28,946 nt of DNA from a virus (IMGVR_UViG_2617270968_000004); one strand, 5' to 3'. Positions 2,021 through 23,507 are shown, counted from the stretch's first letter. Made by a program: numbers and translations. The notes: generated from the letters alone by a model not told the origin.

Positions 2021-2037
2021 AAAATTATTAGTGCAAT
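2021..2037 (-). promoter_or_regulatory. C1 operator-like site (ATTGCACTAATAATTTT, 15/17 to consensus)
   Basis: Reverse complement of 2021..2037 matches the P1 C1 operator consensus ATTGCTCTAATAAATTT with 2 mismatches; lies in the AT-rich divergent intergenic region. Confidence 0.45.
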
Positions 2038-2094
2038 TTTGATTGTGAAATGTATCATTCTGCCCTTAAGTAGGTTCTTCACGAGGAAACAAAA

Positions 2095-2340
2095 TTGGCA
2101 GAACGTGTTGATGATGCAGAGCTGAGCATGAATCAGTTAGAAGCTCTCAAAGACATGGCCATCGATAACATCAGAAAGCAGGCACAGGTCGTGAGCCAGG
2201 TATTTACAGGGAAGTGTCGTTACTGCAATGAATCGATTGAATCAGGCATTTATTGTGACGCTGAATGTGCGCAATGGCACAGGGAAGAGCAGGCTGCAAA
2301 ACAGCGTAAATATAGCATGCGACCGGCAGGATTTGACTGA
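2095..2340 (+). CDS. TraR/DksA-family C4 zinc-finger protein
   Basis: Small protein with C-terminal CxxC...CxxxC (CRYCNESIESGIYCDAEC); TTG start at 2095 with GAGGA upstream; alternative ATG at 2128. Confidence 0.5.
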   Translation: MAERVDDAELSMNQLEALKDMAIDNIRKQAQVVSQVFTGKCRYCNESIESGIYCDAECAQWHREEQAAKQRKYSMRPAGFD

Positions 2341-2342
2341 TT

Positions 2343-2921
2343 ATGTTGCGCTTTACTGAGGAAGAGTTTCAGGCTTTTAGTGAGCGTCGAAATAAGGGGC
2401 GGTCCAGGCCAAAAACCAAAAAGGATCCATTCTTATCGCTTGCGCCGGTAAAAGAAGTTTCTCCACATGCGAAGGCACTTGCAGCACTGGCAAAGAACCC
2501 CGACCTGCGCGACGGAAATTGCGAGCACTTCGAGCAGGTTTTCATTTTTGATTACTTCGAACGCAAGCACCCTGACATCTATGAGCTGTTGCATGCAACG
2601 CCTAACGGAGGGAAACGTTCAAAAGCAACCGCCGGGAAAATGAAGGCTGAAGGGCAGAAAAAAGGTTATCCGGACATGAGTCTCGATAAAGCATGCGGTA
2701 TTTATCACGGCATGCGAATTGAGCTTAAAGAACCAAATGGTAAAGCCCCGACGAAAGAGCAGATCGCCTGGATGCGCAGGCTTAGAGAGGAAGGTTACTA
2801 CGTCGTTCTTGCGTATGGTGCAGAACAAGCGATAACCGCCATCCTGGAATACATGAGCCTTAAAAAGGGTGAGGCTATTGAGCATGTATTGAACGGTGAC
2901 AAGTGGTTGTACGCTACGTGA
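2343..2921 (+). CDS. VRR-NUC domain nuclease-like protein
   Basis: 192 aa; C-terminal half carries the PD-(D/E)xK-type VRR-NUC signature (GYPDMSL...GMRIELK); start abuts the upstream stop. Confidence 0.55.
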   Translation: MLRFTEEEFQAFSERRNKGRSRPKTKKDPFLSLAPVKEVSPHAKALAALAKNPDLRDGNCEHFEQVFIFDYFERKHPDIYELLHATPNGGKRSKATAGKMKAEGQKKGYPDMSLDKACGIYHGMRIELKEPNGKAPTKEQIAWMRRLREEGYYVVLAYGAEQAITAILEYMSLKKGEAIEHVLNGDKWLYAT

Positions 2922-3117
2922 AATAATAAATTAATTAGTGCATGTGTGCTCTTTGATATAGCGCACATTAACATCGGGAGAATAATCGTGTCATCCAAGG
3001 CTAATTATGAATCGCTGGCATCGATCATGCCGCGTAATGAACAGGAAGCAGATGCTGTAGTGGACCCGGTAATCGCTGAAATGAATGCTCGCCTGGAGGC
3101 TGAATTTGCAGCTGAGA

Positions 3118-3747
3118 ATGAACATACCACCCAGGGCGACTAGGACTGTTTTTTGTGTCGGTAGCGGTCCGTCACTCACTCGTGAGGACTGTGCTGCTAT
3201 AGAAAAAACTGGCTGTTCAATCATCGCGGTTAACAATTCCTGGCAGATGTTCGATGACATTTATGCCTTATACGCCGGTGATTTGTCATGGTGGAAGCAA
3301 TACGGATCCACCATACCGGGAGGGAGATTCCGCAAAGTGACAGCCAACCTGGCGGCGGCGAAATCATTTTCGTTGGAGTACAGGCGATATTGTGGACCGG
3401 CTGAAGGGGTTAATAGCGGCGCGCAGGCTATCAGTCTGGCGGCTGAATCAGGGGCTGAAGTAGTTGTATTAGTCGGCTATGACTGTTCTCTGCAAAACGG
3501 CCTTCATTGGCATGGAGCACACCCTCAAGCCCTACGGAATCCAACGCAGGTGTCTATTTCAAAATGGCAACAGCAGTTCCTGGATACCCGCAAAAAACAC
3601 GCAGATTTACATATTTTGAATGCAAGTAGGAGCAGTGCAATTCAATGTTTCCCAAGAATAAATTTAGAGGCAGTGATCGCGTTATTATCGTCGGCAGTGG
3701 CCCAAGCGCCGCAAACTTTGTTGCGCCGCGCGGAGTGCCGATTATAG
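3118..3747 (+). CDS. Hypothetical protein with GxGPS Rossmann-like motif (paralog 1)
   Basis: MNIPPRATRTVFCVGSGPSLT...IIAVNNSW; motif spacing mirrors the downstream paralog. The track ORF begins at 3085; the in-frame ATG at 3118 gives a size equal to paralog 2. Confidence 0.5.
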   Translation: MNIPPRATRTVFCVGSGPSLTREDCAAIEKTGCSIIAVNNSWQMFDDIYALYAGDLSWWKQYGSTIPGGRFRKVTANLAAAKSFSLEYRRYCGPAEGVNSGAQAISLAAESGAEVVVLVGYDCSLQNGLHWHGAHPQALRNPTQVSISKWQQQFLDTRKKHADLHILNASRSSAIQCFPRINLEAVIALLSSAVAQAPQTLLRRAECRL

Positions 3748-4271
3748 CGGTCAATGGGGCCATCGACTGGCTGAACCGCGCTTCTTATTTTTTCACACTT
3801 GATCCATCGCCAGACAATATGCGGCGCGTTGGTCGTGGCCGCCGTCGCCGTGGTGTTTGTTATTGCATGGCACTACCCGATGTTAAAGAACGTGAAGTCA
3901 GAGACGGCGTTCTGTGCTTCCGTCGTGTGGCTGAACGTGGCATGGAGCCAAAAAATACGAATTCTCCCGAGTGGTGGGCGTGGCGCTGGTCCGCACATTT
4001 CGGACTTTGCGAAGATGAGAATGAAATTGCCAGCGGCAATAGTGCATATGGCGCTCTGAACCTGGCTTTCCATATCGGATTCAAACATGTCGCCCTGGTG
4101 GGCGTTGACGCTACACAAGAACCACGCGTTCACTCCGGCGGCACGCCAAAAAATCTAAGTCACCTGCCTTTGTTATTCCAGTCTGCGCGTGAACAGATTG
4201 ACGTTGTTTCATGCGGGAGAATGGGAGGTATTCCGCAGATGACTCTTAAAGAATGGCTGAAGAATACATGA
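3645..4271 (+). CDS. Hypothetical protein with GxGPS Rossmann-like motif (paralog 2)
   Basis: [25 protein letters not shown]...IIAVNGA; AGGAG upstream; stop overlaps the next start (ATGA). Confidence 0.55.
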
Positions 4272-4945
4272 TGGCACCCACAATTTATCACCGTATCGAC
4301 GGTACCAAATACAGGAATGTCTGGGTTGTTGGTGATCTGCATGGTTGCTACACCAGACTGATGTCCGAACTCCATCGTGTGGATTTTGACCCGGCGCAGG
4401 ATTTACTGATATCGGTCGGCGACCTTATCGATCGCGGTACTGAAAATGTCGAATGTCTGGAACTATTGCAGATGCCCTGGTTCAGAGCGGTCATGGGTAA
4501 CCATGAGCGGCTGATGATTGATGCGTTAAGTCCAGATGGCAACGTGAATAACTGGCTAATGAATGGCGGACAATGGTTCTTCATGCTGGACACTGAGCAG
4601 GAAATATTAGCCTGGGCGCTGGTGGAGTTGGTAAGACGACTGCCCTATATCATTGAGTTGAACACCGGGCAAGAAACTATCGTTATAGCCCATGCCGACT
4701 ATCCGGATAATGAATACCAATTCGGTAAGGAGGTGCCGCTTTTCAACGTTGTCTGGGCGCGCGAGCGTATCAGTGATTCGATGGATGATATTGGTGGCGA
4801 AATTTCGGGCGCAGATCGTTTTATCTTTGGTCACACTCCGGTGAAAAGCCCGAAGACATTCTGGAATCAGCAGTATATCGACACTGGTGCCGTATTTTGC
4901 GGAAACCTGACATTGATGAAAGTGAAAGGTGATGGTGCAGCATGA
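4253..4945 (+). CDS. Lambda-type serine/threonine protein phosphatase (calcineurin-like metallophosphoesterase)
   Basis: [16 protein letters not shown] and GNHE motifs; alternative start ATG at 4268 overlaps the upstream stop. Confidence 0.8.
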
Positions 4946-5643
4946 AGATTGCTTTAGTTTTTCGCTCTGGTGGTGACTATAACGCTTCCGATGTGCAGTG
5001 GCTGGTTAATCAACTGCCAAAAGGCTATGAAATTATTTGCCTGACAGACCTGAAGCGTTTACATGTACCTGGCGTCAAAGTTGTCCCATTGATCAACCAG
5101 TGGCAAAAGTGCCGTGGCTGGTGGGCGAAAATAGAGTTGTTCCGACCGGATATAACAGATGATCTGTTCTATCTGGATTTGGACACAGTTATTGCCGGTG
5201 ATATACGCCCAATCCTTGAGAATCCACCAACCAGCTTCACCATGCTTAGGGATTTTTACCATCCACAATATCGTGGTAGCGGTGCCCTGTGGATACCAAA
5301 TAGTGTAAAAGCGCATATCTGGAGTGCATTCTGGCAAGATCCGGAAGGTTGGGTTGCTCGTTGTGTTACTACTGAATGCTGGGGTGAGCAGGGGTTTTTG
5401 CGGAAGGTTATGGGTGATGATACACCAGCATTTCAGGATCTGTATCCGGGATGGTTTGTAAGTTACAAGGCCGATGTTGTGGAACCTGGTTCGAAATATG
5501 CGAGCGCGCGTTACTCCAGGGGGAATGGGGCATTACCAAAAGACTGCCGAATAATCTTTTTCCACGGCAAACCGCGACCTCGCGAAGTGTCAGAGGATTG
5601 GCTTCCCCTTATCAGCTCGTTTTTTGAGCGAGAATCAGAATAA
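4942..5643 (+). CDS. Putative glycosyltransferase-like protein (DxD motif)
   Basis: 233 aa with YLDLDTVI (DxD-like) in an N-terminal Rossmann-like region; ATGA overlap with the phosphatase stop. Confidence 0.4.
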
Positions 5644-5644
5644 T

Positions 5645-5661
5645 ATTGCTCTAATAATTCC
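5645..5661 (+). promoter_or_regulatory. C1 operator (ATTGCTCTAATAATTCC)
   Basis: 14/17 match to the C1 operator consensus, with the first 13 bp exact. Confidence 0.55.
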
Positions 5662-5670
5662 ATATTTTTA

Positions 5671-5699
5671 AAACGTGATGTACACTTATCACGTTTTTT
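5671..5699 (+). terminator. Rho-independent terminator
   Basis: 9-bp stem AAACGTGAT/ATCACGTTT with 8-nt loop followed by a T-run, directly after the glycosyltransferase-like gene. Confidence 0.6.
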
Positions 5700-5710
5700 A
5701 TTAGAGCAAT
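5694..5710 (-). promoter_or_regulatory. C1 operator (minus orientation)
   Basis: Reverse complement reads ATTGCTCTAATAAAAAA. Confidence 0.5.
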
Positions 5711-5724
5711 CTACAGGGTGCACT

Positions 5725-5943
5725 ATGTGGCCATTCCGACGGAAATATCACTACTGGCTGATCGCCTTTGTTACGCCGACCGGCGGTATCAGGCATGTCA
5801 TCACCAGGTATCGCAACAAGAGACTCACCTTAGCCAGAATTTTACAGGCTGCCATAGGTGAGGGACTGGATACAAATTGCGTAGTCCTTCCTCCTTCATA
5901 CTTAGGAAAAATGACCGAAGCACAAGCTAATACGGAACTTTGA
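5725..5943 (+). CDS. Hypothetical small protein
   Basis: 72-aa ORF ending 1 bp before the next gene; no recognisable motif, weak RBS. Confidence 0.3.
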   Translation: MWPFRRKYHYWLIAFVTPTGGIRHVITRYRNKRLTLARILQAAIGEGLDTNCVVLPPSYLGKMTEAQANTEL

Positions 5944-5944
5944 A

Positions 5945-7207
5945 ATGAGCACTTCAGCACAAAACCAATCAATCGAAAATGTATCTATCCCTGATGTCCT
6001 GAATGCCGGTATCCCGGCCATTATCCAGAACATCCGGGCCGCGCAACGCCGCGTTAGTTGTGATGACCTCACAGCACGTTTTTTTGATAATGCGGTTCAG
6101 TCAGCGGAGATGCTTCACGCACAGCTTATTGATGTTTATAACGCAGAAGCTGATAGCCATAACTCCCTGGTAGATGCAGCTGAAAATATGCAGTTGGATC
6201 TCGGTCTGAAGGGTAAAGAAATTGAAGAGCTTCAGCTGCAAATTGAACATTTGAAACGCCAGCAACAGGACGCGATCGACGATGCGACGCATGACGCCAA
6301 CCAGCGTGCTGATAATGCCGAACGTATAAGCATTGAGCTGGAAACAAAACTCAATGAAGTGACCGCGATGGTTGAACTGCGGAACTCACAGATTTCAACG
6401 CTAAAATCTCAATATAAAGAGATCATGAAACTTGATCCTTTTAACCTTGAGAAACGCTATAACAAAGCCAAAAGTGAGCGACAGGAACTGCGTAAGCAGG
6501 TCGCCGACCTTAACCAACAGCTCAAAAAGACTATTAAAGATGCAAGTGAGGCGCGCGTGGCATTTGCTAATAAAAAAGCAGAGGTTACCGCGCTGGTTAA
6601 TGAGAATGCCAAATTTGCGACGCTCAAGAAGGAAATGTATGGCATTACTGAGCGACGTTTCCCTGCAAGCAAACTTCATCCGACGTTAGGGCAAATCTCC
6701 TTCTTCCCGCGCCTCCTGGCTTATGGGATCTCATCGCCTAAAGAGTTCAATAACGAGCGTCCTTATATCGTTTCTAAGCTGGACTTTGCTTATCAGTTCT
6801 GCTGCGACATGGGCTATGCCATTGATATCCGAATCAACGAATGGTTGATGCCAAACTTCCAGCCGTTGGCCATTTTCCGCGAGTTCCAGCCGGAAGGTTG
6901 GGTAGAGTTCTTCCATGAATTGATCTGTAAAGAGATGGAAAGCCGCCGCCCGGAACTGGTCCGTCGAGTTGAGTGGGCGCAAGAGGTTATGTTGGCAGAG
7001 GCAGAGCTGCCGTTCGAACCGGAATTTATTGATGATCTGGCAGCTAAAGGGCTGCATACCCTGTTTGATGTGGTTACCCGCCGTCATGAGCAGTTGGTTG
7101 TCGAATTGGGTTTAGAGGAAACAGCGGCAAGAAGACTTCTCGATGTTTGCTATGCACGTAGCGATGCATGGGAAAAAGAGAACGGCGGCACTATTTACGT
7201 TCGCTGA
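5945..7207 (+). CDS. Hypothetical protein with long N-terminal coiled-coil region
   Basis: 420 aa; residues about 70-230 are heptad-rich (E/K/Q/L), C-terminal globular part unrecognised. Confidence 0.6.
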   Translation: MSTSAQNQSIENVSIPDVLNAGIPAIIQNIRAAQRRVSCDDLTARFFDNAVQSAEMLHAQLIDVYNAEADSHNSLVDAAENMQLDLGLKGKEIEELQLQIEHLKRQQQDAIDDATHDANQRADNAERISIELETKLNEVTAMVELRNSQISTLKSQYKEIMKLDPFNLEKRYNKAKSERQELRKQVADLNQQLKKTIKDASEARVAFANKKAEVTALVNENAKFATLKKEMYGITERRFPASKLHPTLGQISFFPRLLAYGISSPKEFNNERPYIVSKLDFAYQFCCDMGYAIDIRINEWLMPNFQPLAIFREFQPEGWVEFFHELICKEMESRRPELVRRVEWAQEVMLAEAELPFEPEFIDDLAAKGLHTLFDVVTRRHEQLVVELGLEETAARRLLDVCYARSDAWEKENGGTIYVR

Positions 7208-7279
7208 CAGTTACAGTGTCACTTTTGATGCTGGTGGAGTGCGCCCACCAGCATTTTTTTCGTCCAATGAGGAGGGCAT

Positions 7280-7786
7280 TTGAGTATTTTCAATAAACAC
7301 GCACACCAGGAACGTCCGTATATCGTCATAGTTGATATTGATGGAACAATATCAGAGGCAACTGAAGACAGACTGCATTTGCTTCCGCCACCAGGTAAAG
7401 GTGCATTAACAAAGGACTGGAACGAGTTTAATCTCGCCTGTGACACTGATACTCCCATAACTCCAGTTATTGATATTGTGCGCCAGTTATTTAACGTTTA
7501 CACGGTCTGGTTTGTAACCGGGCGCTGTGAGATCGCAAGGGATAAAACACGAGCCTGGCTGCGGAAGTACGTAACAAACGGGGCTGAGCCTTTGCTATCT
7601 ATGCGTCCTGCCACCGATGACAGAAATGACGGCCCAGCAAAGATTGATCTCCTTAAGAAAATTGGTCTAAGTAAAATCGCGTTCGCGCTGGAAGATAAGA
7701 TTGAAGTGGCGCGTGTTTTCAGGAGGCACGGCGTGCTTACGTTAATGGTCAGGGAGTATGAAAACGCGCTTCTCCATCAACAATAA
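7280..7786 (+). CDS. HAD-superfamily phosphatase-like protein (polynucleotide 3'-phosphatase-like; P1 pap-like by position)
   Basis: N-terminal DIDGT motif (HAD motif I) in a 168-aa protein. Confidence 0.55.
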   Translation: MSIFNKHAHQERPYIVIVDIDGTISEATEDRLHLLPPPGKGALTKDWNEFNLACDTDTPITPVIDIVRQLFNVYTVWFVTGRCEIARDKTRAWLRKYVTNGAEPLLSMRPATDDRNDGPAKIDLLKKIGLSKIAFALEDKIEVARVFRRHGVLTLMVREYENALLHQQ

Positions 7787-7802
7787 TTGCTCTAATAAAT
7801 AT
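7786..7802 (+). promoter_or_regulatory. C1 operator (ATTGCTCTAATAAATAT)
   Basis: 16/17 match to consensus, overlapping the pap-like stop codon. Confidence 0.6.
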
Positions 7803-7825
7803 TTATTTTTAAAGCAGAGAAAGTG

Positions 7826-7856
7826 AAAATAAAAACATGCCGCAAGGCGCGGCATG
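7826..7856 (-). terminator. Rho-independent terminator for minus-strand (hsdR) transcription
   Basis: 8-bp stem CATGCCGC/GCGGCATG with 5-nt loop; on the minus strand it is followed by a U-rich run (plus-strand A-run 7826..7835). Confidence 0.55.
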
Positions 7857-7884
7857 TATCCAATCAATCACAGGAGCTGAAAAT

Positions 7885-7971
7885 ATGAACACGGCATTCA
7901 AAATCATTATGGCCGCGATCTATTTCTGGCTGTTCTCTATCACTTTTGGCGATATCGTCGCACATGGGTAA
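7885..7971 (+). CDS. Small hydrophobic peptide (28 aa), candidate membrane peptide
   Basis: MNTAFKIIMAAIYFWLFSITFGDIVAHG with strong SD (CAGGAG, 8-nt spacing); lies within the 3' untranslated region of convergent hsdR. Confidence 0.3.
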   Translation: MNTAFKIIMAAIYFWLFSITFGDIVAHG

Positions 7972-8050
7972 GGGGAGTATATTAGCCATTTGGAACCCCA
8001 CGGTCTCTTGCGGGTTTAATTAAGAACCCGCAAGAAAAACACGAATTGGG

Positions 8051-11000
8051 CTATATTTTTCCGCCTACGCCTTTAAACTTCTCAATAAACGAGACGATTT
8101 TCTGGAAAACTGCCTGTTTTTTCGTTTTATATTGCGGATTTAACGGACTAAGTTTTGGTAATGTTTCGTTTAATTCTGTGCCATTTTCGGTGGCATATTC
8201 GCGTTTTAAAGACGTGCGAATATAGCGTTTTGCTGCATCTTCATTGAGATTTTCTTCTTTTATCAATGCTTCTGCTTCACGTTGCTGTTCGCGTTGAGCA
8301 AACGTAAAGAATGCGTCAATGATGCTGGCTTTGTCCGGTAAATCATCCAGGTTCGTTTGCTGAATAAAATCGACCACCAGGCCCTCTTTAGCACGGTTTC
8401 CCAGGCTTGAACGAATTAAGCGTTTGACCTCTTCGATCATTTCGCCCTTGCCTTTATTTTGTCTGTTGTGTTCGAAAATCAGTCCAAGGATATAATCCAG
8501 GTTTATTTCCTGAGACTTCAGCAAATCGACCTCAAAAACTACGTCATCCCAGTCAGTGGTTGATTTCTCTTTTTTCTCAGCTTCTTTCTCACGGCGCTGC
8601 CAGTCGCGAATATCGTTATAGGCAGAACGATAATCCTGAATCTTGCGATCAGCAGGGAGACGAATTGTTTGCAATTCAGCGAACTTTTCATCATCCACAT
8701 AATGTTCTGCTTTGAATTTTTCTACCGCAACAGGATCGCTAAGATCGATTTGTTGCAGGGCTTTTAGCGTGGCAAATTCATCATAGTTTTGCAGGATGTT
8801 CTCGGCACGCAGGTATTCGCCAAACAGTTTAACGAAGTCTTTCTTCTCTTTTTCACTTTCAATACTGGTAGGGTCAGGGAACCGTTGTTCCAGTTCTGAA
8901 ACTACTGTCATGAAGCCGCGTTTAGCTTCACCTGTAGCAGCATCAGTAAAGCCTTCCATATACTCTGTATAACTCTTTTCTAACACCACATTTTTGGTGT
9001 TTTTGTCACCAAACAGCGTTATGGCATCAATAGTTGAGCGTTCCAGATCCCGGAAAGTGACGATATTACCGAAGGTTTTAGTGGCGTCATAAATGCGGTT
9101 GGTGCGGGAAAATGCCTGCATCAGGCCGTGATAACGTAAGTTTTTATCGACGAATAGCGTGTTCAATGTTGGAGCATCGAAGCCGGTTAAGAACATCCCC
9201 ACGACAATTAGCAGATCGATATCCTGATTTTTAACCCGCTGGGCTAAATCACGATAGTAGTTCTGAAAACCGTTACTGTCGGTGCTAAAGTTAGTTTTAA
9301 AATGGCTGTTATATTCACGAATTGCAGCGTCCAGAAACTCTTTAGCACTGCTGTCCATTGCGCTGGTATCAAAAGTTTCATCGGAAATTTCACCAATGGC
9401 ATTTTGTTCTTCATTGGCGGCAAAGGAGAAGATTGTCGCAATACGCAGCGGTTTATAGGTAGCCGATTTATTAGCGGCTTCTTCTTGTAACCGTTTAAAC
9501 GTCGCATAATAGGCTTTCGCGGCATCCACGCTGCTCACTGCCAACATAGCATTAAAACCTTTTGAGCCAGGGAAGGTACGGTGGGTTTTCTGGCGGAAAT
9601 TATTCAGAATATATTGCGTGATTTCCTGAATACGCATGGGATGAAGAAACGCCTGCTGATTTTCAGCCGCACTCAGTTTTTTCTCGTCAGTTTCTGTCTC
9701 TAAAGACTTAAACTGTGGCCGCACATCGTTGTAGTCCACCTTGAATTTGAGCACTTTTTCGTCACGAATCGCATCGGTAATTACATACGAATGCAATTCA
9801 CGACCAAATACGCTGGCGGTTGTTTCTGAGCCTAAGGCGTTTTCCGGGAAAATAGGGGTGCCGGTAAAACCAAACTGATAATAGCGTTTGAATTTCTTCT
9901 TCAGGTTTTTCTGCGCTTCTCCAAACTGGCTGCGGTGGCATTCATCAAATATAAACACCACTTGCTGATTATATACAGGCAGATCGCTTTCTGCTTTCAT
10001 CAGGTTATTGAGTTTCTGAATAGTAGTGACGATAATTTTGTTATCGTCCTTATCCAGATTTCGTTTAAGGCCTGCGGTATTTTCCGAGCCGTTGACGCTG
10101 TCTGGCGAAAAACGCTGATATTCCTTCATGGTCTGGTAATCGAGGTCTTTCCTGTCGACCACAAAGAAGACTTTATCAATAAAGTCCAGCTCTGTTGCCA
10201 GACGCGCGGCTTTAAAGCTGGTGAGGGTTTTACCAGAACCGGTAGTGTGCCAGATATACCCACCGCTTTCCGGTTTTGACCAGTTCTTCGCTGTAAAGGA
10301 ACTCTTAATTTTCCACAGAATGCGCTCGGTGGCGGCAATCTGGTACGGTCGCATTACCAGTAGTGTCTGACTGCTGTCAAAAACGCTGTAGTTCACCAGA
10401 ACATTAAGCAGAGTATGTTTCTGGAAAAAGGTGGCGGTAAAGTCTTTGAGGTCTTTAATCAGCGTATTGTCTGATTTCGCCCAGTTCATGGTGAAGTCAA
10501 AACTGTTTTTATCGCGCTTTGTCGTGTTGGCAAAATAACGGGTATCAGTGCCGTTGGAAATGACGAACAGCTGCAGATACTTAAACAGGGAATTTTCGCT
10601 GTTAAAACTCTCTTTACTGTAACGATGTATCTGGTTGAAAGCCTCACGAATCGCCACGCCGCGTTTTTTCAGTTCGATTTGTACCAGCGGTAAGCCATTA
10701 ACCAGGATAGTTACGTCATAACGGTTAGCGTGAGAACCCGCCTGTTCAAACTGCTGGATAATCTGCACCTTATTGCGCATGAGATTCTTTTTATCTATCA
10801 AATAGATGTTCTCAAGACGCTCGTCATCAAAAATAAAGTCGCAAATATAGTCGATATGGATTTTACGGGTCTTATCCAGAATGCCATCGCTCGGGTTATC
10901 CAGATACTGCTCCGTGAAACGCCGCCACTCGCTGTCATTAAACACCACACCATTGAGGTTCTGAAGCTGTTCCCGAACATTGGCCAGCATCGCCGACTGT

Positions 11001-14230: not shown

Positions 14231-14238
14231 AGGTATTT

Positions 14239-14840: not shown

Positions 14841-14844
14841 ATTA

Positions 14845-15024
14845 ATGGCACGCAAATACAACAAATTGTCCCGTGAAGCGTTAAAGATGCTTCTTGATGG
14901 CGTGAGTCGCCGCGAGGTAAAGCAATACCTGGTTGGTAAGCAAATTGGAGCCAGGACCGCTATTGCTGTGTTATGCCGTCAGGAAATGGTTGTGCTTAAA
15001 CAGAGAATGCCGGGCAGCAGATAA
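14845..15024 (+). CDS. Hypothetical small protein downstream of doc (pdcA-like position)
   Basis: 59-aa ORF from ATG 14845 with GGAG 8 nt upstream. Confidence 0.4.
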   Translation: MARKYNKLSREALKMLLDGVSRREVKQYLVGKQIGARTAIAVLCRQEMVVLKQRMPGSR

Positions 15025-15051
15025 AGCCCAATCAGTGATGAAAGGTGTGAT

Positions 15052-16095
15052 GTGAAAGCCGTAATTACTCCCTTTGTACAAAAAGAGCTTGGCGTCGCCA
15101 CATTCAAAGTGGATCAGGAAGTCAGAAAGCTGGTGGAGGCTGGCCGTAAATTTATTATGGAGCCGGTGCCGCGTGAGTTAATCGAGCACATGGACGACGG
15201 CCTCGTTGTTTCCGAGCAAACTATGGCAACAAATGAGGCGTTGCAGCCGTTTTTTAACAGCGATGAACTGTTTCGCAGTATTGGTGGAATTGACGCGCTG
15301 GTGGCGTGGTTGCGCAGGAAAGAGGGGCAATGCCAGGCCGCAGATCGTAGCTGGTGTGACAACCATATTGTCCACGCAGAACGAGACAATAGCGCGGTGT
15401 TGTTGTGCTGGCATCACGATAACCATTACCGGATGCGTGGTTTTAATGAGCTGAAAGAAACGCTGCATAATAATCGCGTTAACTGGATACTGGATGTCGC
15501 CCGTCAGGAAATGGGGCTTTCAGATGGCCATGATTTAAGTATTCAGGAACTGTGCTGGTGGGCTTTCATGCGCAACATGATGCACCTGATGCCGGAAGAA
15601 GTTTGCCGTATATCAATAAATAAGATGAAAGCCGCAACGCAGGATAGCGGACCTCTGAAAGAGGCGGATATTCGCCCGTATGACGATCGCGCTACAGCAT
15701 ATGTTCAGATGATGGAAGAACGCGCCGCGCCGATGCGTGCAAAAGTATGCCCTGTGGATGTTGACTCCGACCCTGGCATGGCGCATTTCAAAATACCAAA
15801 ACTGCAATCGCTAAAATTACCTGAGTACATGGACTTTGTTGCTTCCCGTCCATGCTGTGGGTGTGGAGCGGCGGGAGCTGGCGCTCACATTACGCCTTAT
15901 ATCGTTCGTCATAGTCGATTATACGCGCATGACATTTACGCAATTCCTCTGTGCCAGTCATGCCAGCGTGATATTGAGCGTGACCGCGATAATTGGGAGA
16001 AGACGCACGGTAGGCTGGCGATGCATCAACGATTGTTCTTTGATTACGCGCTTGGAGTCGGCGCTATCACAAGTCACTCGTCGAGCGTTAGATAA
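15052..16095 (+). CDS. Hypothetical protein with Cys/His-rich C-terminal region (pdcB-like position; possible degenerate HNH-like motif)
   Basis: 347 aa; C-terminus RPCCGCG...[10 protein letters not shown]...[10 protein letters not shown] resembles a zinc-binding HNH-like arrangement. Confidence 0.5.
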
Positions 16096-16096
16096 A

Positions 16097-16113
16097 ATTG
16101 CTCTAATGTATTG
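16097..16113 (+). promoter_or_regulatory. C1 operator overlapping a sigma70-like promoter
   Basis: ATTGCTCTAATGTATTG (14/17); -35 TTGCCA 16111..16116 and -10 TATTAT 16133..16138 with 16-bp spacing; 7-bp inverted repeat TGATTAG/CTAATCA at 16149..16171 in the leader. Confidence 0.55.
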
Positions 16114-16183
16114 CCATTTCTTTAATCGAGGGTATTATATTTCACGTTGATTAGTTGACATGGGCTAATCAGTAGGTGACAGG

Positions 16184-16766
16184 ATGTTACTTAACTGGCA
16201 GGGACGCCACTTCATGGAAATAAATCACTCACGAATAACATCGTACGAGATTGCGGATTACATGATCCGCACTAAATCTCTTCTATCAGCGAAAGAACTC
16301 GCAGCAATTCTTGAAAAGGAATACCCGCATCTGGATGTCGATAAGCGCGATGTTTATCTGCGCTTACGAACGAAAGCGTGAAAATAACTGGTCAGTGCTG
16401 GAAGCAGCTGAATTCATCGAGGCGCATGGCGGAAAAGTGCCGCCCCTGATGCTGGAGCAAATCAAAGCCGATCTGCGTGCTCCTAAGACCAATACCGATG
16501 ATGAGGAAAGGCAAACAGCCGTCGGTGGCCCTTCTCTTGAAGATCTGGACAAAGTTGCGCGAGAACGGGCCGCCAACCGCCGCGCCGATGCCGCATTGTG
16601 GATTGAGCAGCGTAGGGAAGAAATCGCCGATATCGTTGATACAGGCGGTTATGGAGATGTTGATACTGAAGGTGTATCAAACGACCCATGGCTGGAACAA
16701 GACCTGGACGAAGACGAGGAGGAAGACGAAGAAGTTACCCGCAAGCTATACGGGGATGATGATTAA
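16184..16766 (+). pseudogene. Candidate late gene (small-terminase or late-activator position) split across two frames
   Basis: ORF 16184..16381 (frame 2) and ORF 16311..16766 (frame 3, TTG-started in the track, acidic C-terminus [11 protein letters not shown]). A single +1 shift near 16375 would join them into about 190 aa; the stop overlaps the pacB start (TAATG). Confidence 0.3.
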
Positions 16767-18250
16767 TGGCCAGAAGTTGCGTAACGGATCCACGTTGGCG
16801 CGAGCTGGTGGCGCTATATCGTTATGACTGGATTGCTGCCGCTGATGTTTTGTTCGGCAAAACACCTACCTGGCAGCAGGATCTGATTATTGAGTCTGTG
16901 CAGGAACAGGGTAGCAAGACATCTGTTTCGTCTGGTCACGGTACCGGGAAATCAGACATGACTTCTATCATGATCATGTTGTTCATAATCATGTATCCCG
17001 GTGCCCGCGCCATTATCGTTGCGAACAAAATTCAGCAGGTAATGACCGGTATATTCAAGTACATCAAGATAAACTGGGCTACTGCCACCAGCCGTTTTCC
17101 ATGGCTTGCTGATTATTTTGTTCTGACAGAAACCGCTTTCTATGAGGTTACTGGTAAAGGTGTATGGACTGTAGTACCGAAGGGCTTTCGTCTGGGAAGT
17201 GAAGAAGCTCTCGCCGGTGAACACGCAGATCATCTTCTGTATATTATCGATGAAGCCTCCGGTGTCAGTGATAGAGCTTTCGGTATCATCACCGGTGCTC
17301 TTACCGGACAGGATAACCGCATCTTATTGCTGTCACAGCCTACACGCCCAAGCGGCTATTTCTACGATACACACCATAAACTGGCCAAGCGTCCTGGTAA
17401 CCCTGATGGCGTTTATACGGCGATCACGCTTAACAGTGAGGAATCACCGTTGGTAACGCCAGCATTTATCAAAATGAAGCTGGCGGAGTACGGCGGGCGT
17501 GATAACCCTATGTACATGATTAAGGTACGCGGCCTATTCCCTAAATCACAGGATGGCTTCCTTCTTGGACGTGATGAGGTTGAACGTGCAACGCGGCGGA
17601 AAGTCAAGATTGCCAAAGGATGGGGCTGGCTTGCATGTGTGGACGTTGCTGGTGGTACGGGACGGGATAAGTCCGTTATCAATATCATGATGGTGTCCGG
17701 CCAGCGAAATAAACGCCGTGTAATCAACTATCGAATGCTGGAATACACAGACGTTACAGAAACGCAGCTTGCCGCCAAAATTTTCGCAGAATGTAATCCT
17801 GAGCGATTCCCAAATATCACCATAGCGATAGACGGCGATGGCCTGGGTAAAGCAACGGCGGATCTGATGTACGAGTATTATGGTATTACCGTACAGCGTA
17901 TACGCTGGGGTAAAAAGATGCATAGCCGTGAAGATAAGAGCCTGTACTTTGATAAACGTGCTTATGCCAACGTTCAAGCCGCAGAGGCCGTAAAATCTGG
18001 TCGTATGAGACTGGATAAGGGTAATGAAACTATTGAGGAAGCGTCGAAAATCCCTGTAGGGATTAACTCCGCAGGTCAATGGAAGGTGATGAGTAAGGAG
18101 GATATGAAGAAAAAACTCAACCTGCACTCACCAGACCATTGGGATACATATTGTTTCGCTATGCTGGCGGATTATGTTCCCCAGGATGAAGTGCTTAGCG
18201 TCGAAGACGAAGCGCAGGTTGATGAAGCTCTGGCATGGCTTAATGAATGA
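16766..18250 (+). CDS. pacB: Terminase large subunit PacB
   Basis: 494 aa (the P1 PacB length as I recall it); Walker A-like GHGTGKS near the N-terminus; translational coupling to the upstream ORF. Confidence 0.8.
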
Positions 18251-18253
18251 ATA

Positions 18254-18270
18254 TTTGCTCTAATAAATTG
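18254..18270 (+). promoter_or_regulatory. C1 operator (TTTGCTCTAATAAATTG)
   Basis: 15/17 match, 4 bp after the pacB stop. Confidence 0.55.
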
Positions 18271-18395
18271 TGTTTTTTAACTACCGATGTTACATTGAGC
18301 CTGACCTCTTGCGCCTTGAGGCATTTTCGGTTTATGCTTATCAGGCACCTCATTAAAACGGGTGCCGGGATTGGCCTCCCGCTTAAGTCTAAGGC

Positions 18396-18425
18396 GATAC
18401 AGACGCCGCTCGCGTCTTTTTTTTG
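18396..18425 (+). terminator. Rho-independent terminator
   Basis: Stem AGACGC/GCGTCT with 5-nt loop followed by T8 (18418..18425). Confidence 0.6.
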
Positions 18426-18589
18426 TATCGGCGTACACGCACACCTCTACAATGGTGGGCTGTATGGGGCTACCTTCGGGTAGGCTGGTTACCTTGGACG
18501 CCAGTAAGGCCAACTCCGTACAGTCCACCGCCAGCAAGATTGGTCTCTTCTGCGGTGGTTACATACCAACGTCTAAGGAGGCTGCCAAT

Positions 18590-18811
18590 ATGGCTACTAT
18601 CCCTATCCCAACTCATCCTGAATTTATCTGGCGCTTTTACTCCTGCCAAAAACGTCACTATCACTTCGTTATTGCACCGACAGAAGATGAGGCCCGCTCT
18701 CAGCTTCCTGACGCCCCATGTATTTTCTCTGCCCGTTTTTCCACTGATTCACGCAATTCTCTCAGTTACTGGTGCCTCCCTGTTAACGCTTCTGCTCAGG
18801 AGGGACTATGA
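18590..18811 (+). CDS. icd: Icd-like small protein (73 aa) translationally coupled to the antirepressor gene
   Basis: ATG 18590 preceded by AAGGAGG; 73 aa, the P1 Icd length as I recall it; stop overlaps the ant start (ATGA). Confidence 0.5.
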   Translation: MATIPIPTHPEFIWRFYSCQKRHYHFVIAPTEDEARSQLPDAPCIFSARFSTDSRNSLSYWCLPVNASAQEGL

Positions 18812-19926
18812 GAACGTCATTAGTCACCCGTGAAGAGATGATCGAGGCAATTGAACAGCACACTGCCTGTATCAGTACCAGGGATATACCAGGCGTTATT
18901 GCCAACTACTTCATGATCACCAAACAACTTTACCGGAGAAAGGACAAGAACGCGGTTCACCGTATCCTGTTGTCTGATATCCGCGAATACCTGCTCGAAC
19001 AGGGTCATCTGAATTACGCAACCGCCGCAGCCGAAGCACGCAAGGAGGCACACAGAATGAAAGCAACTAACGTTAAATCAGAAAAAATTCATGCACCTTC
19101 AGTTCAAGAATCGGAGCTGGTGGTTGTTCAGAATCAGTCTGATGAAATTCCCGTTCTGGAATGGCAGGGAGTGCGTGTAGTGACAACCGAGACTCTTGCT
19201 AGAGGGTATGGGACAGAAACAATCCGTATTCGCCAAAATCATCATGAGAACAAAGTACGCTTTGTTGAAGGGAAGCACTTTTTCAAAGTTGAAGGAGAAT
19301 CATTGCGCGAGTTGAAGCACAGAGTAGCTTTAAACTACTCTGTAAAAATTGCTCGCAATGTTCGCTCACTCACCCTCTGGACAGAACGCGGCGCAGCCCG
19401 CCACGCTAAAATGCTCGAAACCGATCAGGCATGGGCATTCTTTGAAAAACTGGAAGACAGCTACTTCCGACAAAAAGAACAGCAACCGATCGCAATCCCC
19501 CAGACGCTTCCTGAAGCCCTACGCCTGGCTGCCGAACTGGCTGAACAAAAGCAACTTCTGGAACAGAAAGCCCACCAGCTAAATCAGCAGCTGGTGGCCG
19601 CCGCTCCTAAAGTCGATTTTGCCGACCGGGTATCAGTAGCTAAAGGGATCCTGATTGGGAATTTTGCAAAGGTTGTTGGACTTAAACAAAACGCGCTGTT
19701 TGTCTGGTTACGGGAGAACGGCATCCTGATAGCGTCCGGTGGACGTAAAAATGTGCCGTTCCAGCAGTACATCAACGCGGGGTATTTCACGGTGAAAGAA
19801 GTGGTGCTGGATGATGAAGATGGCTACCAGATACGGTTGACGCCTCAATTAACGGGTAAAGGCCAGCAGTGGTTGACGCGTAAACTGCTCGATGCTGGCT
19901 TGTTAAAACCGGTGGCGGCTGAATAA
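18808..19926 (+). CDS. ant: Antirepressor Ant1-like (ORF6N plus KilAC/Ant domains), with in-frame internal Ant2-like start at 19057
   Basis: 372 aa; central VLEWQGVRVVTTETLARGYG... and C-terminal VDFADRVSVAKG...FVWLRENGIL antirepressor-type regions; internal in-frame ATG 19057 has its own AAGGAGG, giving a 290-aa product. Confidence 0.6.
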   Translation: MRTSLVTREEMIEAIEQHTACISTRDIPGVIANYFMITKQLYRRKDKNAVHRILLSDIREYLLEQGHLNYATAAAEARKEAHRMKATNVKSEKIHAPSVQESELVVVQNQSDEIPVLEWQGVRVVTTETLARGYGTETIRIRQNHHENKVRFVEGKHFFKVEGESLRELKHRVALNYSVKIARNVRSLTLWTERGAARHAKMLETDQAWAFFEKLEDSYFRQKEQQPIAIPQTLPEALRLAAELAEQKQLLEQKAHQLNQQLVAAAPKVDFADRVSVAKGILIGNFAKVVGLKQNALFVWLRENGILIASGGRKNVPFQQYINAGYFTVKEVVLDDEDGYQIRLTPQLTGKGQQWLTRKLLDAGLLKPVAAE

Positions 19927-19958
19927 TGGAAGAATGCCCGGTTGATGCCGGGCATAAT

Positions 19959-20810
19959 TTATTGCGCGCTTTCGGGGTTGTCGTTTACTGGCTGCCCCTT
20001 CTTGGTTTTACGGCTGCGCGTAACTGATGCGGCTGACTTAACCTTTTTCTCTTCGCGAGTGATGGCAATTTGTTTTTTTACATTTTCAATATCTGCCAGG
20101 CGATATATTTTTGCTTGCGGCCAGCGGTCGCAGATGATCGGTTCTATGGAGTCATAAAGGCTAAATTTTGCTTTTTCGAATTCACCGTTGATGATAATTC
20201 CATCACGGAGAGTTTCATCGCAGATAAACACGCCACACAGTGGCACATGGTAACTAACTGATTTACCATCATTGTAGTTAGGGCTACTGGAAATGTAGTG
20301 GACGCGCAGCATTGTTTCGCTAAAGCCGTGTACGCGCATACGGAATTTTTCATCCTCCGGGTACTGCTTCATTAGCTCTTTTGTTGCTTCCAGGTTCTCT
20401 ATGTATTTCGCACTGTGCTCATTGATCCCCGCGCTTTTTTGGATGCGAATGTCCTTATCAATCAGATGAATAATGCGGCCAGCGGTCATGTTGACGCTGT
20501 TCACAGCTTCTGTCTGATAAGTTGTAACCTTACGCACACCGCGAAGGATGTTAGGCACTGGATATAAAATAGTCTTTGGGATATTGAGGTCTGGGTACTG
20601 TTCCAGTTCCCGCGCCATTAAAGTCCATTTATCAATTTCAGCCTGAATGCTGTCAGTTTCTTTGAACGGTAGAACGACAACCGGGCGTACAGGACGACCG
20701 TCGCTGGCTGTATCAACGTGTTGGGCGCGTGCAACAGCTTTTTTTAGAAAGAGATCCCTGAAGCTGACGAACTCCTGGTACAGTTGTTCGCCGTAGACAT
20801 AATTTATCAT
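19959..20810 (-). CDS. c1: C1 repressor of lysis (P1-type primary repressor)
   Basis: 283 aa, the P1 C1 length as I recall it; its cognate operators are scattered through the window and coi lies immediately upstream. Confidence 0.8.
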   Translation of the reverse strand: MINYVYGEQLYQEFVSFRDLFLKKAVARAQHVDTASDGRPVRPVVVLPFKETDSIQAEIDKWTLMARELEQYPDLNIPKTILYPVPNILRGVRKVTTYQTEAVNSVNMTAGRIIHLIDKDIRIQKSAGINEHSAKYIENLEATKELMKQYPEDEKFRMRVHGFSETMLRVHYISSSPNYNDGKSVSYHVPLCGVFICDETLRDGIIINGEFEKAKFSLYDSIEPIICDRWPQAKIYRLADIENVKKQIAITREEKKVKSAASVTRSRKTKKGQPVNDNPESAQ

Positions 20811-20904
20811 TGATCCTCCTCCAGAATTGACATGGTCAATAACGCCCGGCTGAGAAAACCGGTCATTACTGACCTATATTATAGAGGGATCAAACAAAAA
20901 TAAT

Positions 20905-20921
20905 AGATTTATTAGTGCATT
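20905..20921 (-). promoter_or_regulatory. C1 operator-like site between coi and c1
   Basis: Reverse complement AATGCACTAATAAATCT, 14/17 to consensus. Confidence 0.4.
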
Positions 20922-21130
20922 TATTGTGAGTCTAACTGGTTAGTTGCCATGAGATATTCGATTGTGTCAGTGAGGTCATCCAGGTCGTCTTGGGTGATGC
21001 GGTACTCCTGATTGGATATCTTTGAGTAGTGTTCAGCAATGGCGCGGGCAGCGTCGGTTTCGGCAGGGTCTACAGATAAAGCGTTAGAGCAATGTCTAAC
21101 GTCGTCGATGGTTGGTTGAATGAAAGCCAT
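20921..21130 (-). CDS. coi: Coi (C1 inactivator)
   Basis: 69-aa acidic protein directly upstream of c1 on the same strand, the P1 Coi size and position as I recall them. Confidence 0.7.
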   Translation of the reverse strand: MAFIQPTIDDVRHCSNALSVDPAETDAARAIAEHYSKISNQEYRITQDDLDDLTDTIEYLMATNQLDSQ

Positions 21131-21368
21131 AATTATGCCTCACTGTATTGACAACACAGAGCCTGAAGCTCTGACCTACTGTTTCACCCATGATCCATGC
21201 TGGGGTAATCTAACAACATTGCGCTGTGTGTAAGATGAGCAATGCATAGCTGTAATGCCGTTGTATAAGGTTTCCCTGTTTGCTCATTTCCTTCTGAGCC
21301 GCTCTACAACGCTGAAGACACATTAAATAGTGAATCCAAAGTCGTATTACGAAACGGCGGCAAAACTA

Positions 21369-21385
21369 TAATTCATTAGAGCAAT
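21369..21385 (-). promoter_or_regulatory. C1 operator (minus orientation)
   Basis: Reverse complement ATTGCTCTAATGAATTA (15/17). Confidence 0.55.
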
Positions 21386-21451
21386 TGTCAAACAACTATG
21401 AAAAACAATCCAGTTTTTGGCTGGTGGAGTTGGATTTTTCTCTCAAAATTT

Positions 21452-21468
21452 ATTGCTCTAATAATTCT
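21452..21468 (+). promoter_or_regulatory. C1 operator (ATTGCTCTAATAATTCT)
   Basis: 15/17 match to consensus, about 45 bp from loxP. Confidence 0.6.
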
Positions 21469-21511
21469 TGATTTTTATGCGCAGCTGGACGTAAACTCCT
21501 CTTCGGACCTA

Positions 21512-21545
21512 ATAACTTCGTATAGCATACATTATACGAAGTTAT
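21512..21545 (+). other. loxP: loxP recombination site (34 bp)
   Basis: Exact ATAACTTCGTATA-GCATACAT-TATACGAAGTTAT: two 13-bp inverted repeats around the 8-bp asymmetric spacer. Confidence 0.97.
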
Positions 21546-21564
21546 CTTAAGGGTTATTGAACAT

Positions 21565-21637
21565 GATCAATTTACCTGTAAATCCATACAGTTAAATACC
21601 TTATCAGGTCAAATAGTGATCACTTGATCATTTGATC
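21565..21637 (+). promoter_or_regulatory. GATC (Dam site) cluster in the loxP-cre regulatory region
   Basis: Four GATC sites at 21565, 21618, 21626 and 21634, the last three as TGATCA repeated at 8-bp spacing; P1 cre promoters are known to be Dam-regulated. Confidence 0.5.
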
Positions 21638-21734
21638 AAGGTTGCGCTACGTAAAATCTGCGAAATGTTGGCAGTGTTAGTGCTCCAGATTTCGCGTAGC
21701 GCACTTAGCACCACCAATCAATCAGAGGTGAAAA

Positions 21735-21956
21735 ATGGGATATTCAGCTGCTAAAGTGTCCACTCATATTGAGCTTGAGAAAAACCGTGGTTACTGGCGG
21801 GCAAAAGGGTTTGATCGTGATAGTTGTCAACTGTCATTATCGCGCGGTGAAGAGAAAATAGAACGCACGCGTGGTCGCTGGCGTTTCTATGACGAGAACC
21901 ATAAACAGGTAAAGGCAGAGCCGATCCTGTACACTTTACTTAAAACCATTATCTGA
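21735..21956 (+). CDS. Hypothetical small protein between loxP and cre
   Basis: 73-aa ORF with strong SD (GAGGTG, 5-nt spacing), ending 8 bp before cre; basic, no recognised motif. Confidence 0.3.
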   Translation: MGYSAAKVSTHIELEKNRGYWRAKGFDRDSCQLSLSRGEEKIERTRGRWRFYDENHKQVKAEPILYTLLKTII

Positions 21957-21963
21957 GTGTTAA

Positions 21964-22995
21964 ATGTCCAATTTACTGACCGTACACCAAAATTTGCCTG
22001 CATTACCGGTCGATGCAACGAGTGATGAGGTTCGCAAGAACCTGATGGACATGTTCAGGGATCGCCAGGCGTTTTCTGAGCATACCTGGAAAATGCTTCT
22101 GTCCGTTTGCCGGTCGTGGGCGGCATGGTGCAAGTTGAATAACCGGAAATGGTTTCCCGCAGAACCTGAAGATGTTCGCGATTATCTTCTATATCTTCAG
22201 GCGCGCGGTCTGGCAGTAAAAACTATCCAGCAACATTTGGGCCAGCTAAACATGCTTCATCGTCGGTCCGGGCTGCCACGACCAAGTGACAGCAATGCTG
22301 TTTCACTGGTCATGCGACGGATCCGAAAAGAAAACGTTGATGCCGGTGAGCGTGCAAAACAGGCGCTGGCGTTCGAACGCACTGATTTCGACCTGGTTCG
22401 TTCACTCATGGAAAATAGTGAGCGCTGCCAGGATATACGTAATCTGGCATTTCTGGGGATTGCTTATAACACCCTGTTACGTATAGCCGAAATTTCCAGG
22501 ATCAGGGTTAAAGATATCTCACGTACTGACGGTGGGAGAATGTTAATCCATATTGGCAGAACGAAAACGCTGGTTAGCACCGCTGGTGTAGAGAAGGCAC
22601 TTAGCCTAGGGGTAACTAAACTGGTTGAGCGATGGATTTCTGTCTCTGGTGTAGCTGATGATCCGAATAACTACCTGTTTTGCCGCGTCAGAAAAAATGG
22701 TGTTGCCGCGCCATCATCCACCAGCCAGCTATCAACTCGCGCCCTGGAAGGGATTTTTGAAGCAACTCATCGATTGATTTACGGCGCTAAGGATGACTCT
22801 GGTCAGAGATACCTGGCCTGGTCTGGACACAGTGCCCGTGTCGGAGCCGCGCGAGATATGGCCCGCGCCGGAGTTTCAATACCGGAGATCATGCAAGCTG
22901 GTGGCTGGACCAACGTAAATATTGTCATGAACTATATCCGTAACCTGGATAGTGAAACAGGGGCAATGGTGCGCCTGCTGGAAGATGGCGATTAG
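21964..22995 (+). CDS. cre: Cre site-specific tyrosine recombinase
   Basis: 343 aa MSNLLTVHQNLPALPVDATSDEVRKNLMDMFRDRQAFSEHTWKMLLSVCRSWAAW...; catalytic-region motifs (HSARVGAARDM, GGWTNVNIVMNY) and an adjacent loxP. Confidence 0.97.
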   Translation: MSNLLTVHQNLPALPVDATSDEVRKNLMDMFRDRQAFSEHTWKMLLSVCRSWAAWCKLNNRKWFPAEPEDVRDYLLYLQARGLAVKTIQQHLGQLNMLHRRSGLPRPSDSNAVSLVMRRIRKENVDAGERAKQALAFERTDFDLVRSLMENSERCQDIRNLAFLGIAYNTLLRIAEISRIRVKDISRTDGGRMLIHIGRTKTLVSTAGVEKALSLGVTKLVERWISVSGVADDPNNYLFCRVRKNGVAAPSSTSQLSTRALEGIFEATHRLIYGAKDDSGQRYLAWSGHSARVGAARDMARAGVSIPEIMQAGGWTNVNIVMNYIRNLDSETGAMVRLLEDGD

Positions 22996-23012
22996 CCATT
23001 AACGCGTAAATT

Positions 23013-23029
23013 ATTGCTCTAATTCTTTG
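23013..23029 (+). promoter_or_regulatory. C1 operator (ATTGCTCTAATTCTTTG)
   Basis: First 11 bp exact match to consensus; lies between cre and the next gene. Confidence 0.5.
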
Positions 23030-23045
23030 ATATTTATGGTGACAT

Positions 23046-23357
23046 ATGAGAAAGGATTTCAACATCGACGGAAAATATGTAGTGCTGTCTGTAAGCACTA
23101 ATATTCAGTCGCCAGCCGTCATTGTCACCGTAAAGTTGAGCGATAGGATGCCTGATATCGACTCGATATCTGTTGCGTTCCCCGTTAAAAGCATGCGGAG
23201 TGCTGAACATTTTGTGATGAATGCAACGGAGGAGGAAGCGCGGCGCGGGCTTACTAGAGTGATGGCGGAATTTGGCGAACTCCTGGGTAAGGTAAACAAT
23301 GCCCTTTCAATCAGTTCAGCAAGGTCCAAAGCGTTAACAGCTTCCATGATGAAATAA
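23046..23357 (+). CDS. Hypothetical protein (cra-like, cre-associated position)
   Basis: 103-aa ORF directly downstream of cre. Confidence 0.45.
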   Translation: MRKDFNIDGKYVVLSVSTNIQSPAVIVTVKLSDRMPDIDSISVAFPVKSMRSAEHFVMNATEEEARRGLTRVMAEFGELLGKVNNALSISSARSKALTASMMK

Positions 23358-23383
23358 AAAAAAAGCCTGGCAAGGAGCCAGGC
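23355..23383 (-). terminator. Terminator-like hairpin oriented for minus-strand transcripts
   Basis: Stem GCCTGGC/GCCAGGC (loop AAGGA) preceded on the plus strand by A10, which is a U-run after the hairpin on the minus strand. Confidence 0.4.
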
Positions 23384-23490
23384 TGCACAAAAGAGCGGGT
23401 TTGTATTCCGCATCCAATCAATCAAGAAGGAGTATAGCACACAGGTACTGAAGTAAAAAAATGTGATTCGCGATAAAAAAAATACCTACC

Positions 23491-23507
23491 ATTGCTCTAA
23501 TTGATTG
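23491..23507 (+). promoter_or_regulatory. C1 operator (ATTGCTCTAATTGATTG) with adjacent -10 TATAAT (23509..23514)
   Basis: First 11 bp exact match to consensus; -10 hexamer immediately downstream. Confidence 0.55.

Follow-up and report, generated by a model that had tools for sequence, protein, structure and literature searches.

Which repressor reads the 17-bp motif that recurs across a P1-like viral genome, and which genes stand under it? We addressed this question in a 28,946-nucleotide stretch of the virus IMGVR_UViG_2617270968_000004 (the window, that is, the whole stretch of DNA analyzed), in which the original prediction, made from the sequence alone, had reported at least ten matches to the operator consensus of the phage P1 repressor C1. 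The motif is, in our judgment with high confidence, the C1 operator set of a P1-like plasmid prophage, read by the element's own C1 repressor. According to megablast, positions 1588-24863 of the window matched Punavirus (P1-like) phages and plasmids at 95 to 98% identity, and the backbone was collinear with P1 (AF234172) at 96 to 98% identity. This homology places the window within a plasmid prophage of the P1-like (Punavirus) group. The matching segments were as follows.

Window 1588-7975: P1 78095-84482
Window 14163-16366: P1 87970-90173
Window 16351-18248: P1 91308-93204, at 83% identity
Window 19960-21528: P1 93232-94800
Window 21529-24863: P1 1-3336, the map crossing lox on entering this segment
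Window 26742-27674: P1 9754-10686, with lxc and ulx

The window was scanned with the asymmetric 17-bp consensus ATTGCTCTAATAAATTT, allowing at most 3 mismatches, with dinucleotide shuffles as controls. Ten sites were found, compared with a mean of 0.20 and a maximum of 2 in the shuffles. These sites started at 2021 (minus), 5645, 5694 (minus), 7786, 16097, 18254, 20905 (minus), 21369 (minus), 21452 and 23491. The 9-base core TGCWCTAAT occurred 13 times when 0.58 occurrences were expected, and none of 100 shuffles reached 13. A position weight matrix, the check proposed with the original prediction, was trained on seven P1 operators outside the DNA homologous to the window (Ossb/Op21, Oc4/Op51, OrepL/Op53, Orlf/Op55, Odmt/Op68 and Oban a and b/Op72). 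Because training was restricted to operators from nonhomologous P1 DNA, circularity was avoided. The matrix also showed enrichment, with 13 window sites at 14 bits or more versus 0.39 expected (300 dinucleotide shuffles, maximum of 3) and 14 sites at 12 bits or more versus 1.04 expected. A matrix match at 7661 within pap (13.6 bits) was taken as background; its core is broken, and the same sequence in P1 is not annotated as an operator. No site of 10 bits or more was found by the matrix scan in the cargo, namely, the insertion sequence (IS) fragments, the hsd genes and the segment with the EAL-domain and AraC-type genes.

These counts bear on a simple alternative, in which the matches would be chance products of base composition, that is, AT-rich, −10-like sequences (TGnTCTAAT is close to an extended −10) typical of AT-rich intergenic DNA. 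The 3′ half of the motif is indeed AT rich, and the core does resemble an extended −10, to the extent that at the site before c8 one base change turns it into TGCTATAAT. However, no dinucleotide shuffle came near the observed counts for the consensus, the core or the matrix; the exact 11-mer ATTGCTCTAAT is present 8 times in the window; and sites are identical to annotated P1 operators. The three shuffle tests together with orthology refute this explanation, to which we give practically no credence.

The orthology was established site by site against the P1 reference annotation (GenBank AF234172/NC_005856), where the C1 operators are the protein_bind features labeled "phage repressor C1". When the operators were mapped with their flanks, 13 of the 13 annotated in the homologous P1 region were found in the window with 0 or 1 change.

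2021-2037, minus strand: O26 (former Op82), between gene 26 and pmgL; ATTGCACTAATAATTTT, identical to P1 78528-78544; 23.5 bits
2928-2944, minus strand: Oppp (former Op83); CATGCACTAATTAATTT, identical to P1 79435-79451; 17.7 bits
5645-5661, plus strand: OpmgRa (Op86a), at the predicted PpmgR promoter; identical to P1 82152-82168; 19.3 bits
5694-5710, minus strand: OpmgRb (Op86b), upstream of pmgR (5725-5943); identical to P1 82201-82217; 20.0 bits
7786-7802, plus strand: OpmgT (Op88), overlapping the pap stop codon; ATTGCTCTAATAAATAT, 1 change from P1 84293-84309; 26.9 bits
16097-16113, plus strand: Olpa (Op94), upstream of the truncated lpa (16184-16381); identical to P1 89904-89920
20894-20910, plus strand: Oc1b (Op99b), part of the bivalent Oc1ab at promoter Pc1; 1 change from P1
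20905-20921, minus strand: Oc1a (Op99a), part of the bivalent Oc1ab (20894-20921) at promoter Pc1; identical to P1
21077-21093, minus strand: Oc1c (Op99c), within coi; ATTGCTCTAACGCTTTA, identical to P1 94349-94365
21369-21385, minus strand: Oc1d (Op99d), at promoter P1coi; ATTGCTCTAATGAATTA, 1 change (A12G) from P1
21452-21468, plus strand: Oc1e (Op99e), at P4cre, towards lox, cra and cre; identical to P1 94724-94740
23491-23507, plus strand: Oref (Op2a), upstream of ref (23605-24165); identical to P1 1962-1978
24156-24172, plus strand: Omat (Op2b), at the ref/mat junction; CATGCACTAATAAATAT, identical to P1 2628-2644

The single change in OpmgT makes the window site read as the Op68 sequence. 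Oc1b and Oc1c were weak consensus matches in the window, exactly as they are in P1. Among related contigs of the IMG/VR database, Olpa was identical in 13 of 13, and Oc1a and Oc1c were each identical in 29 of 29; the Oref core was kept in 33 of 36, with flanks just 90% identical. The A12G variant of Oc1d was rare (1 of 31 contigs), and it might slightly alter C1 control of coi. When all sites were considered in up to 44 related contigs, variation fell almost wholly in positions 12 to 17. Within positions 1 to 11, the only variable ones were position 1 at 18254 and, in a minority allele of both Oref and the 23013 site, position 7. As a side observation, the strand label of Omat in the P1 record (AF234172, 2628-2645) is apparently flipped, since the plus strand is the one that carries CATGCACTAATAAATAT.

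Set against this map, every coordinate listed by the original prediction proved real, including the weaker candidates at 2021 and 20905, both on the minus strand, and the one at 21077 in coi, which matches 12 of 17 positions and is identical to Oc1c of P1. The match of 14 to 16 of 17 positions given for the stronger sites did not hold for 23013, which matches 13 of 17, and three annotated P1 operators, Oppp, Oc1b and Omat, had been overlooked. The genes assigned to the sites at the immI-like module, c1-coi, cra/cre and ref were correct. The site at 16097 had been placed before a candidate late gene; it is instead Olpa, located ahead of lpa, a gene under C1 control whose product activates late promoters.

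The proteins that would act on these sites are encoded in the window itself.

19959-20810, minus strand: c1, the repressor; 281 of 283 residues identical to P1 C1 (C1.100)
20921-21130, minus strand: coi, the C1 inactivator; 67 of 69 residues identical to P1 Coi
26738-26986, minus strand: lxc (bof), the C1 corepressor (immT); 82 of 82 residues identical to P1 Lxc

In P1, C1 binds 22 dispersed operators with an asymmetric consensus, Lxc strengthens the binding, and Coi and Ant1/2 antagonize C1 (PMC8546580). From the near-identity of both sites and protein to those of P1, we infer C1 binding and repression at the window sites. C1 made from 19959-20810 would bind the sites with the aid of Lxc, and the bound repressor would silence the promoters of scattered early and lytic genes during plasmid lysogeny; Coi and the Ant antirepressor would counteract it. 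The 13 positional orthologues of P1 operators would be joined by a 14th site at 18254, of the Op51 type and belonging to a second immI-type module, and plausibly by a 15th at 23013. The predicted arrangement of one repressor over dispersed operons is supported by the 281 of 283 residues shared by the two C1 proteins and with the complete set of mapped operators.

The C1 operator network of P1 has been mapped from the late 1980s onward. It is already known and annotated site by site in GenBank, and the finding restates this textbook regulon for a new P1-like plasmid: the 17-bp consensus, the positions relative to genes, the repressor (99% identical), Lxc and Coi are all the same as in P1. The window differs from P1 in carrying hsd in place of the operon beyond Op88 and in the truncation of the gene after Olpa. 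A comparable layout is that of the "stoperators" of mycobacteriophage L5, many asymmetric sites dispersed genome-wide and bound by one repressor (gp71) with no single operator cluster; the likeness is an analogy, the motif and protein being unrelated. With its intact immunity system, made up of C1, Coi, Lxc and a second C4/Ant module, the window is recognizable from the operator map as a P1-type plasmid prophage. The map also tells backbone from cargo, since operators occur only in the former. It provides two small leads, a candidate operator before c8 and a second immI module that the same repressor would control and whose C4 specificity is probably its own, both of which bear on how P1-like plasmids set superinfection immunity. 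P1-like plasmids are frequent carriers of resistance genes.

Several points weigh against the assignment of the motif to a working C1 regulon. Most operator-adjacent promoters are predictions of the P1 record. Those that this annotation led us to expect near 7786, 18254 and 23013 were not called by simple sigma-70 scans of the three regions, so that the promoter assignments rest on alignment to P1. When the matrix was run over all of P1, 21 sites reached 14 bits or more, of which 18 were annotated and 3 were not; because of these 3, a matrix score by itself cannot prove a new site, which weakens the score as proof for 23013. Finally, late transcription, one main output of the regulon, has probably been lost in this element, with selection on some sites perhaps now relaxed.

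The last point comes from a deletion. Compared with the closest phage, the window lacks 1132 bp (19307-20438 of that phage) between 16-bp direct repeats, with the junction at 16351-16366 within the region 16184-16766. The deletion cuts Lpa to a 65-residue fragment beyond Olpa, with the loss of Lpa residues ~62 to 150. Also gone are PacA residues 1 to about 258, along with the pac site and the late promoter LPpac. A similar arrangement was found in only 2 of 686 plasmid records. With these losses, the element is probably unable to switch on its late genes or to package DNA, and its main lytic output would be disabled.

This loss, along with the IS fragments that break the backbone at 1-1588 and after 27700, could mean that the prophage is decaying and locked in the plasmid state, with operators that are simply inherited: the choice between lysis and lysogeny would no longer be made by the switch, and the sites would persist only because the decay is recent. 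We consider this unlikely. The regulon sites and the repressor are intact despite the deletion, as are Coi and Lxc; the rarity of the deletion indicates that it is probably recent; and C1 would remain necessary to silence toxic early genes, examples from P1 being kilA and the icd-ant operon. Moreover, decay bears on the present usefulness of the sites and not on their identity.

The 18254 site has no P1 counterpart in place and heads a 1.7-kb insertion between pacB and c1 with the following features.

18254-18270, plus strand: operator equivalent to Op51/Oc4, of the second immI-type module; TTTGCTCTAATAAATTG; 21.2 bits
18345-18422, plus strand: isrK-like leader RNA; Rfam RF01394, 60.8 bits, above the gathering score
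18448-18535, plus strand: C4 antisense RNA; Rfam RF01695, 75.9 bits, above the gathering score
18590-18811, plus strand: icd-like gene; 53 of 66 aligned residues (80%) identical to P1 Icd
18808-19926, plus strand: ant, the antirepressor; 56% identical to P1 Ant1, with ANT/KilAC and ORF6N domains

The leader of this insertion aligned with the P1 immI leader, and the operator lined up with Op51-P51a. Its core, TGCTCTAAT, was invariant across 7 diverged immI leaders, and its 3′ end overlapped a P51a-like −35 (TTGTGT, 18268-18273; −10 TACATT, 18291-18296); these hexamers were read by eye and from the alignment and were not called by the simple promoter scan. Because the leader aligns, the core is invariant and the −35 is overlapped, the 18254 site is, by this comparison, an Op51-type operator of an immI-type module. 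The likeness to P1 and P7 immI (Op51 - P51a/P51b - c4 - icd - ant1/2) extends to the operator overlapping the first −35 and to the order of the elements that follow, a C4-family RNA, then icd, then ant. The icd and ant reading frames share 4 nucleotides at 18808-18811, as expected of translationally coupled genes. The immI of P1 and P7 sits between sim and kilA, whereas the window module lies between pacB and c1, and the window Ant, unlike that of P1/P7 immI, has a central ORF6N domain.

The complement of the C4 loop CCUUGGAC is found at the icd ribosome-binding site as GUCUAAGG (18573-18580). At the aligned positions, P1 immI has CACUAAC in the loop and GUUAGUG in the target, so that both were changed in a matched way in the window. 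Because loop and target changed together, the second module is suggested to have a distinct immunity specificity. We also considered whether the module was a relocated immI and rejected it, as the closest phages, vB_EcoM-673R5, JL22 and RCS47, have both the module and the canonical immI. The module leader was present in at least 292 plasmid records; the RNA part was 78% identical to modules in Stx phages, whereas the operator-bearing leader was found only in P1-like elements. An ant insertion between pacB and c1 has already been described for pTZ20_1P and RCS47 (PMC6906374). At 18362-18811, a Pfam Phage_ASH match and the "ash family protein" coding sequence of RefSeq relatives overlap the C4 RNA gene; these coding sequences look like translations of the RNA gene and not real proteins.

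The other lead lies before c8.

23013-23029, plus strand: candidate C1 operator, 17 nucleotides upstream of the c8 start codon (23046); ATTGCTCTAATTCTTTG, with an exact 11-base core; 15.3 bits

The matrix score of this site resembled those of Olpa and Oref. Since 3 unannotated P1 sites also reach 14 bits or more, the status of the site rests on its exact core and its conservation rather than on the score. Both P1 (1485-1501) and P7 (about 186-202) have ATTGCTATAATTATTTG at this place, in which the operator core is mutated, and neither is annotated with an operator there. Among the IMG/VR P1-like contigs that matched the flanks of the c8 site, 41 of 44 had the intact core and 3 of 44 had the P1 allele. 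In P1 and P7, a C-to-A change both breaks the operator core and produces TGCTATAAT; this is a perfect extended −10 without promoter annotation. The site is a plausible extra operator, a candidate lost in both reference phages, and we regard it as a modest lead. We would tentatively extend this to the proposal, possible but short of probable, that most P1-like plasmid prophages have one C1 operator more than the P1 and P7 references, namely, ATTGCTCTAATTCTTTG before c8. If so, c8, a putative lysogeny-establishment gene, would be under C1 control in the wild population, and the change in P1 and P7 would free c8 expression from C1 in the two laboratory phages.

The original prediction had further suggested, from the site at 7786 (Op88), that the hsd insertion sits at a C1-controlled locus. 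The insertion at 7976-14162 replaces P1 84483-87969 (pmgT to humD). The hsd genes, identified by Pfam domains, are as follows.

8051-14062, minus strand: hsdM-hsdS-hsdR, in that gene order, an EcoR124I-type (type IC) system, as context outside the regulon
14062-12500, minus strand: hsdM
12503-11289, minus strand: hsdS
11167-8051, minus strand: hsdR; matches PDB 2w00 (EcoR124I HsdR) over residues 1-1038 with 2309 bits; Pfam EcoR124_C

By these matches, the hsd system is of type IC, and its HsdR is essentially EcoR124I HsdR. Op88 is the last P1 regulatory element ahead of the replacement, and P1 homology continues to 7975. According to notes in the P1 record, the DNA flanking the EcoDXXI and R124 hsd loci matches P1 84263-84482 and 87969-88647. 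The EcoR124I and EcoDXXI loci, flanked by P1 DNA, have the same junctions as the window (P1 84482 and 87969/87970), with nothing of substance different. The specificity subunit HsdS differs from that of the closest phage over part of its length, as expected in type I systems. The flanking of type IC hsd loci by P1 DNA was published by Tyndall et al. (1997, Mol Microbiol 23:729), as cited in PMC12707154, and pSvP1 is reported to have a type I system in place of pmg genes (PMC6906374).

The locus could be of regulatory consequence if C1 acted on hsd through Op88, either by direct repression or by a derepressed antisense RNA running into the 3′ end of hsdR and lowering restriction in lytic growth. 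In favor of this, Op88 is still present with its predicted promoters 250 bp from the hsdR stop codon, the stretch from 7802 to 8200 has no predicted plus-strand terminator, and the pap-Op88-hsdR junction was found in 258 plasmid records. Nevertheless, hsdM, hsdS and hsdR are on the minus strand, opposite to and convergent with the Op88 promoter, and their upstream region (14062-14163) lies about 6 kb from Op88. The matrix scan gave no C1 site of 10 bits or more within 7976-14162, and none was found at the hsd upstream region. The PpmgT promoters are weak predictions, and the junction is identical beside the EcoDXXI and R124 hsd loci, as the notes in the P1 record indicate. In many plasmids, the hsd flank is present from window position 7892 without the operator, which argues that hsd functions without Op88. 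We therefore regard an action of C1 on hsd through Op88 as very unlikely. Because hsd is convergent to the Op88 promoter and without C1 sites, C1 control of hsd is not supported. What stands of the original suggestion is the position, in the place of the pmgT block; as a statement about control it found no support, the genes lying on the opposite strand with no C1 site in 6.2 kb.

Two unannotated elements were noticed in the P1-homologous flank between Op88 and the hsdR stop codon, both also unannotated in P1: a perfect palindrome at 7835-7857, which reads as a terminator for minus-strand transcripts, and, at 7885-7971, a 28-codon hydrophobic open reading frame (ORF), MNTAFKIIMAAIYFWLFSITFGDIVAHG, with a good ribosome-binding site.

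Other segments interrupt the backbone outside the regulon. At window 1-1588, on the minus strand, is an IS3-family fragment with HTH_Tnp_1 and HTH_21 ORFs and an ALIL frameshift pseudoknot (RF01497) at 1139-1255; P1 homology begins right next to it, with the 3′ end of the baseplate gene 26. At 24863-26738, the res-mod (EcoPI type III) region of P1 is swapped for two other genes.

25052-25741, minus strand: EAL-domain gene
25965-26699, plus strand: AraC-type regulator

The closest phage has a different insert at the equivalent place, encoding a RelA/SpoT family protein. After ulx, at 27700-28946, in the place of darB in P1, further IS-derived ORFs (HTH_Tnp_1 and HTH_38) interrupt the backbone, and this stretch includes 97 bp that match the P1 copy of IS1.

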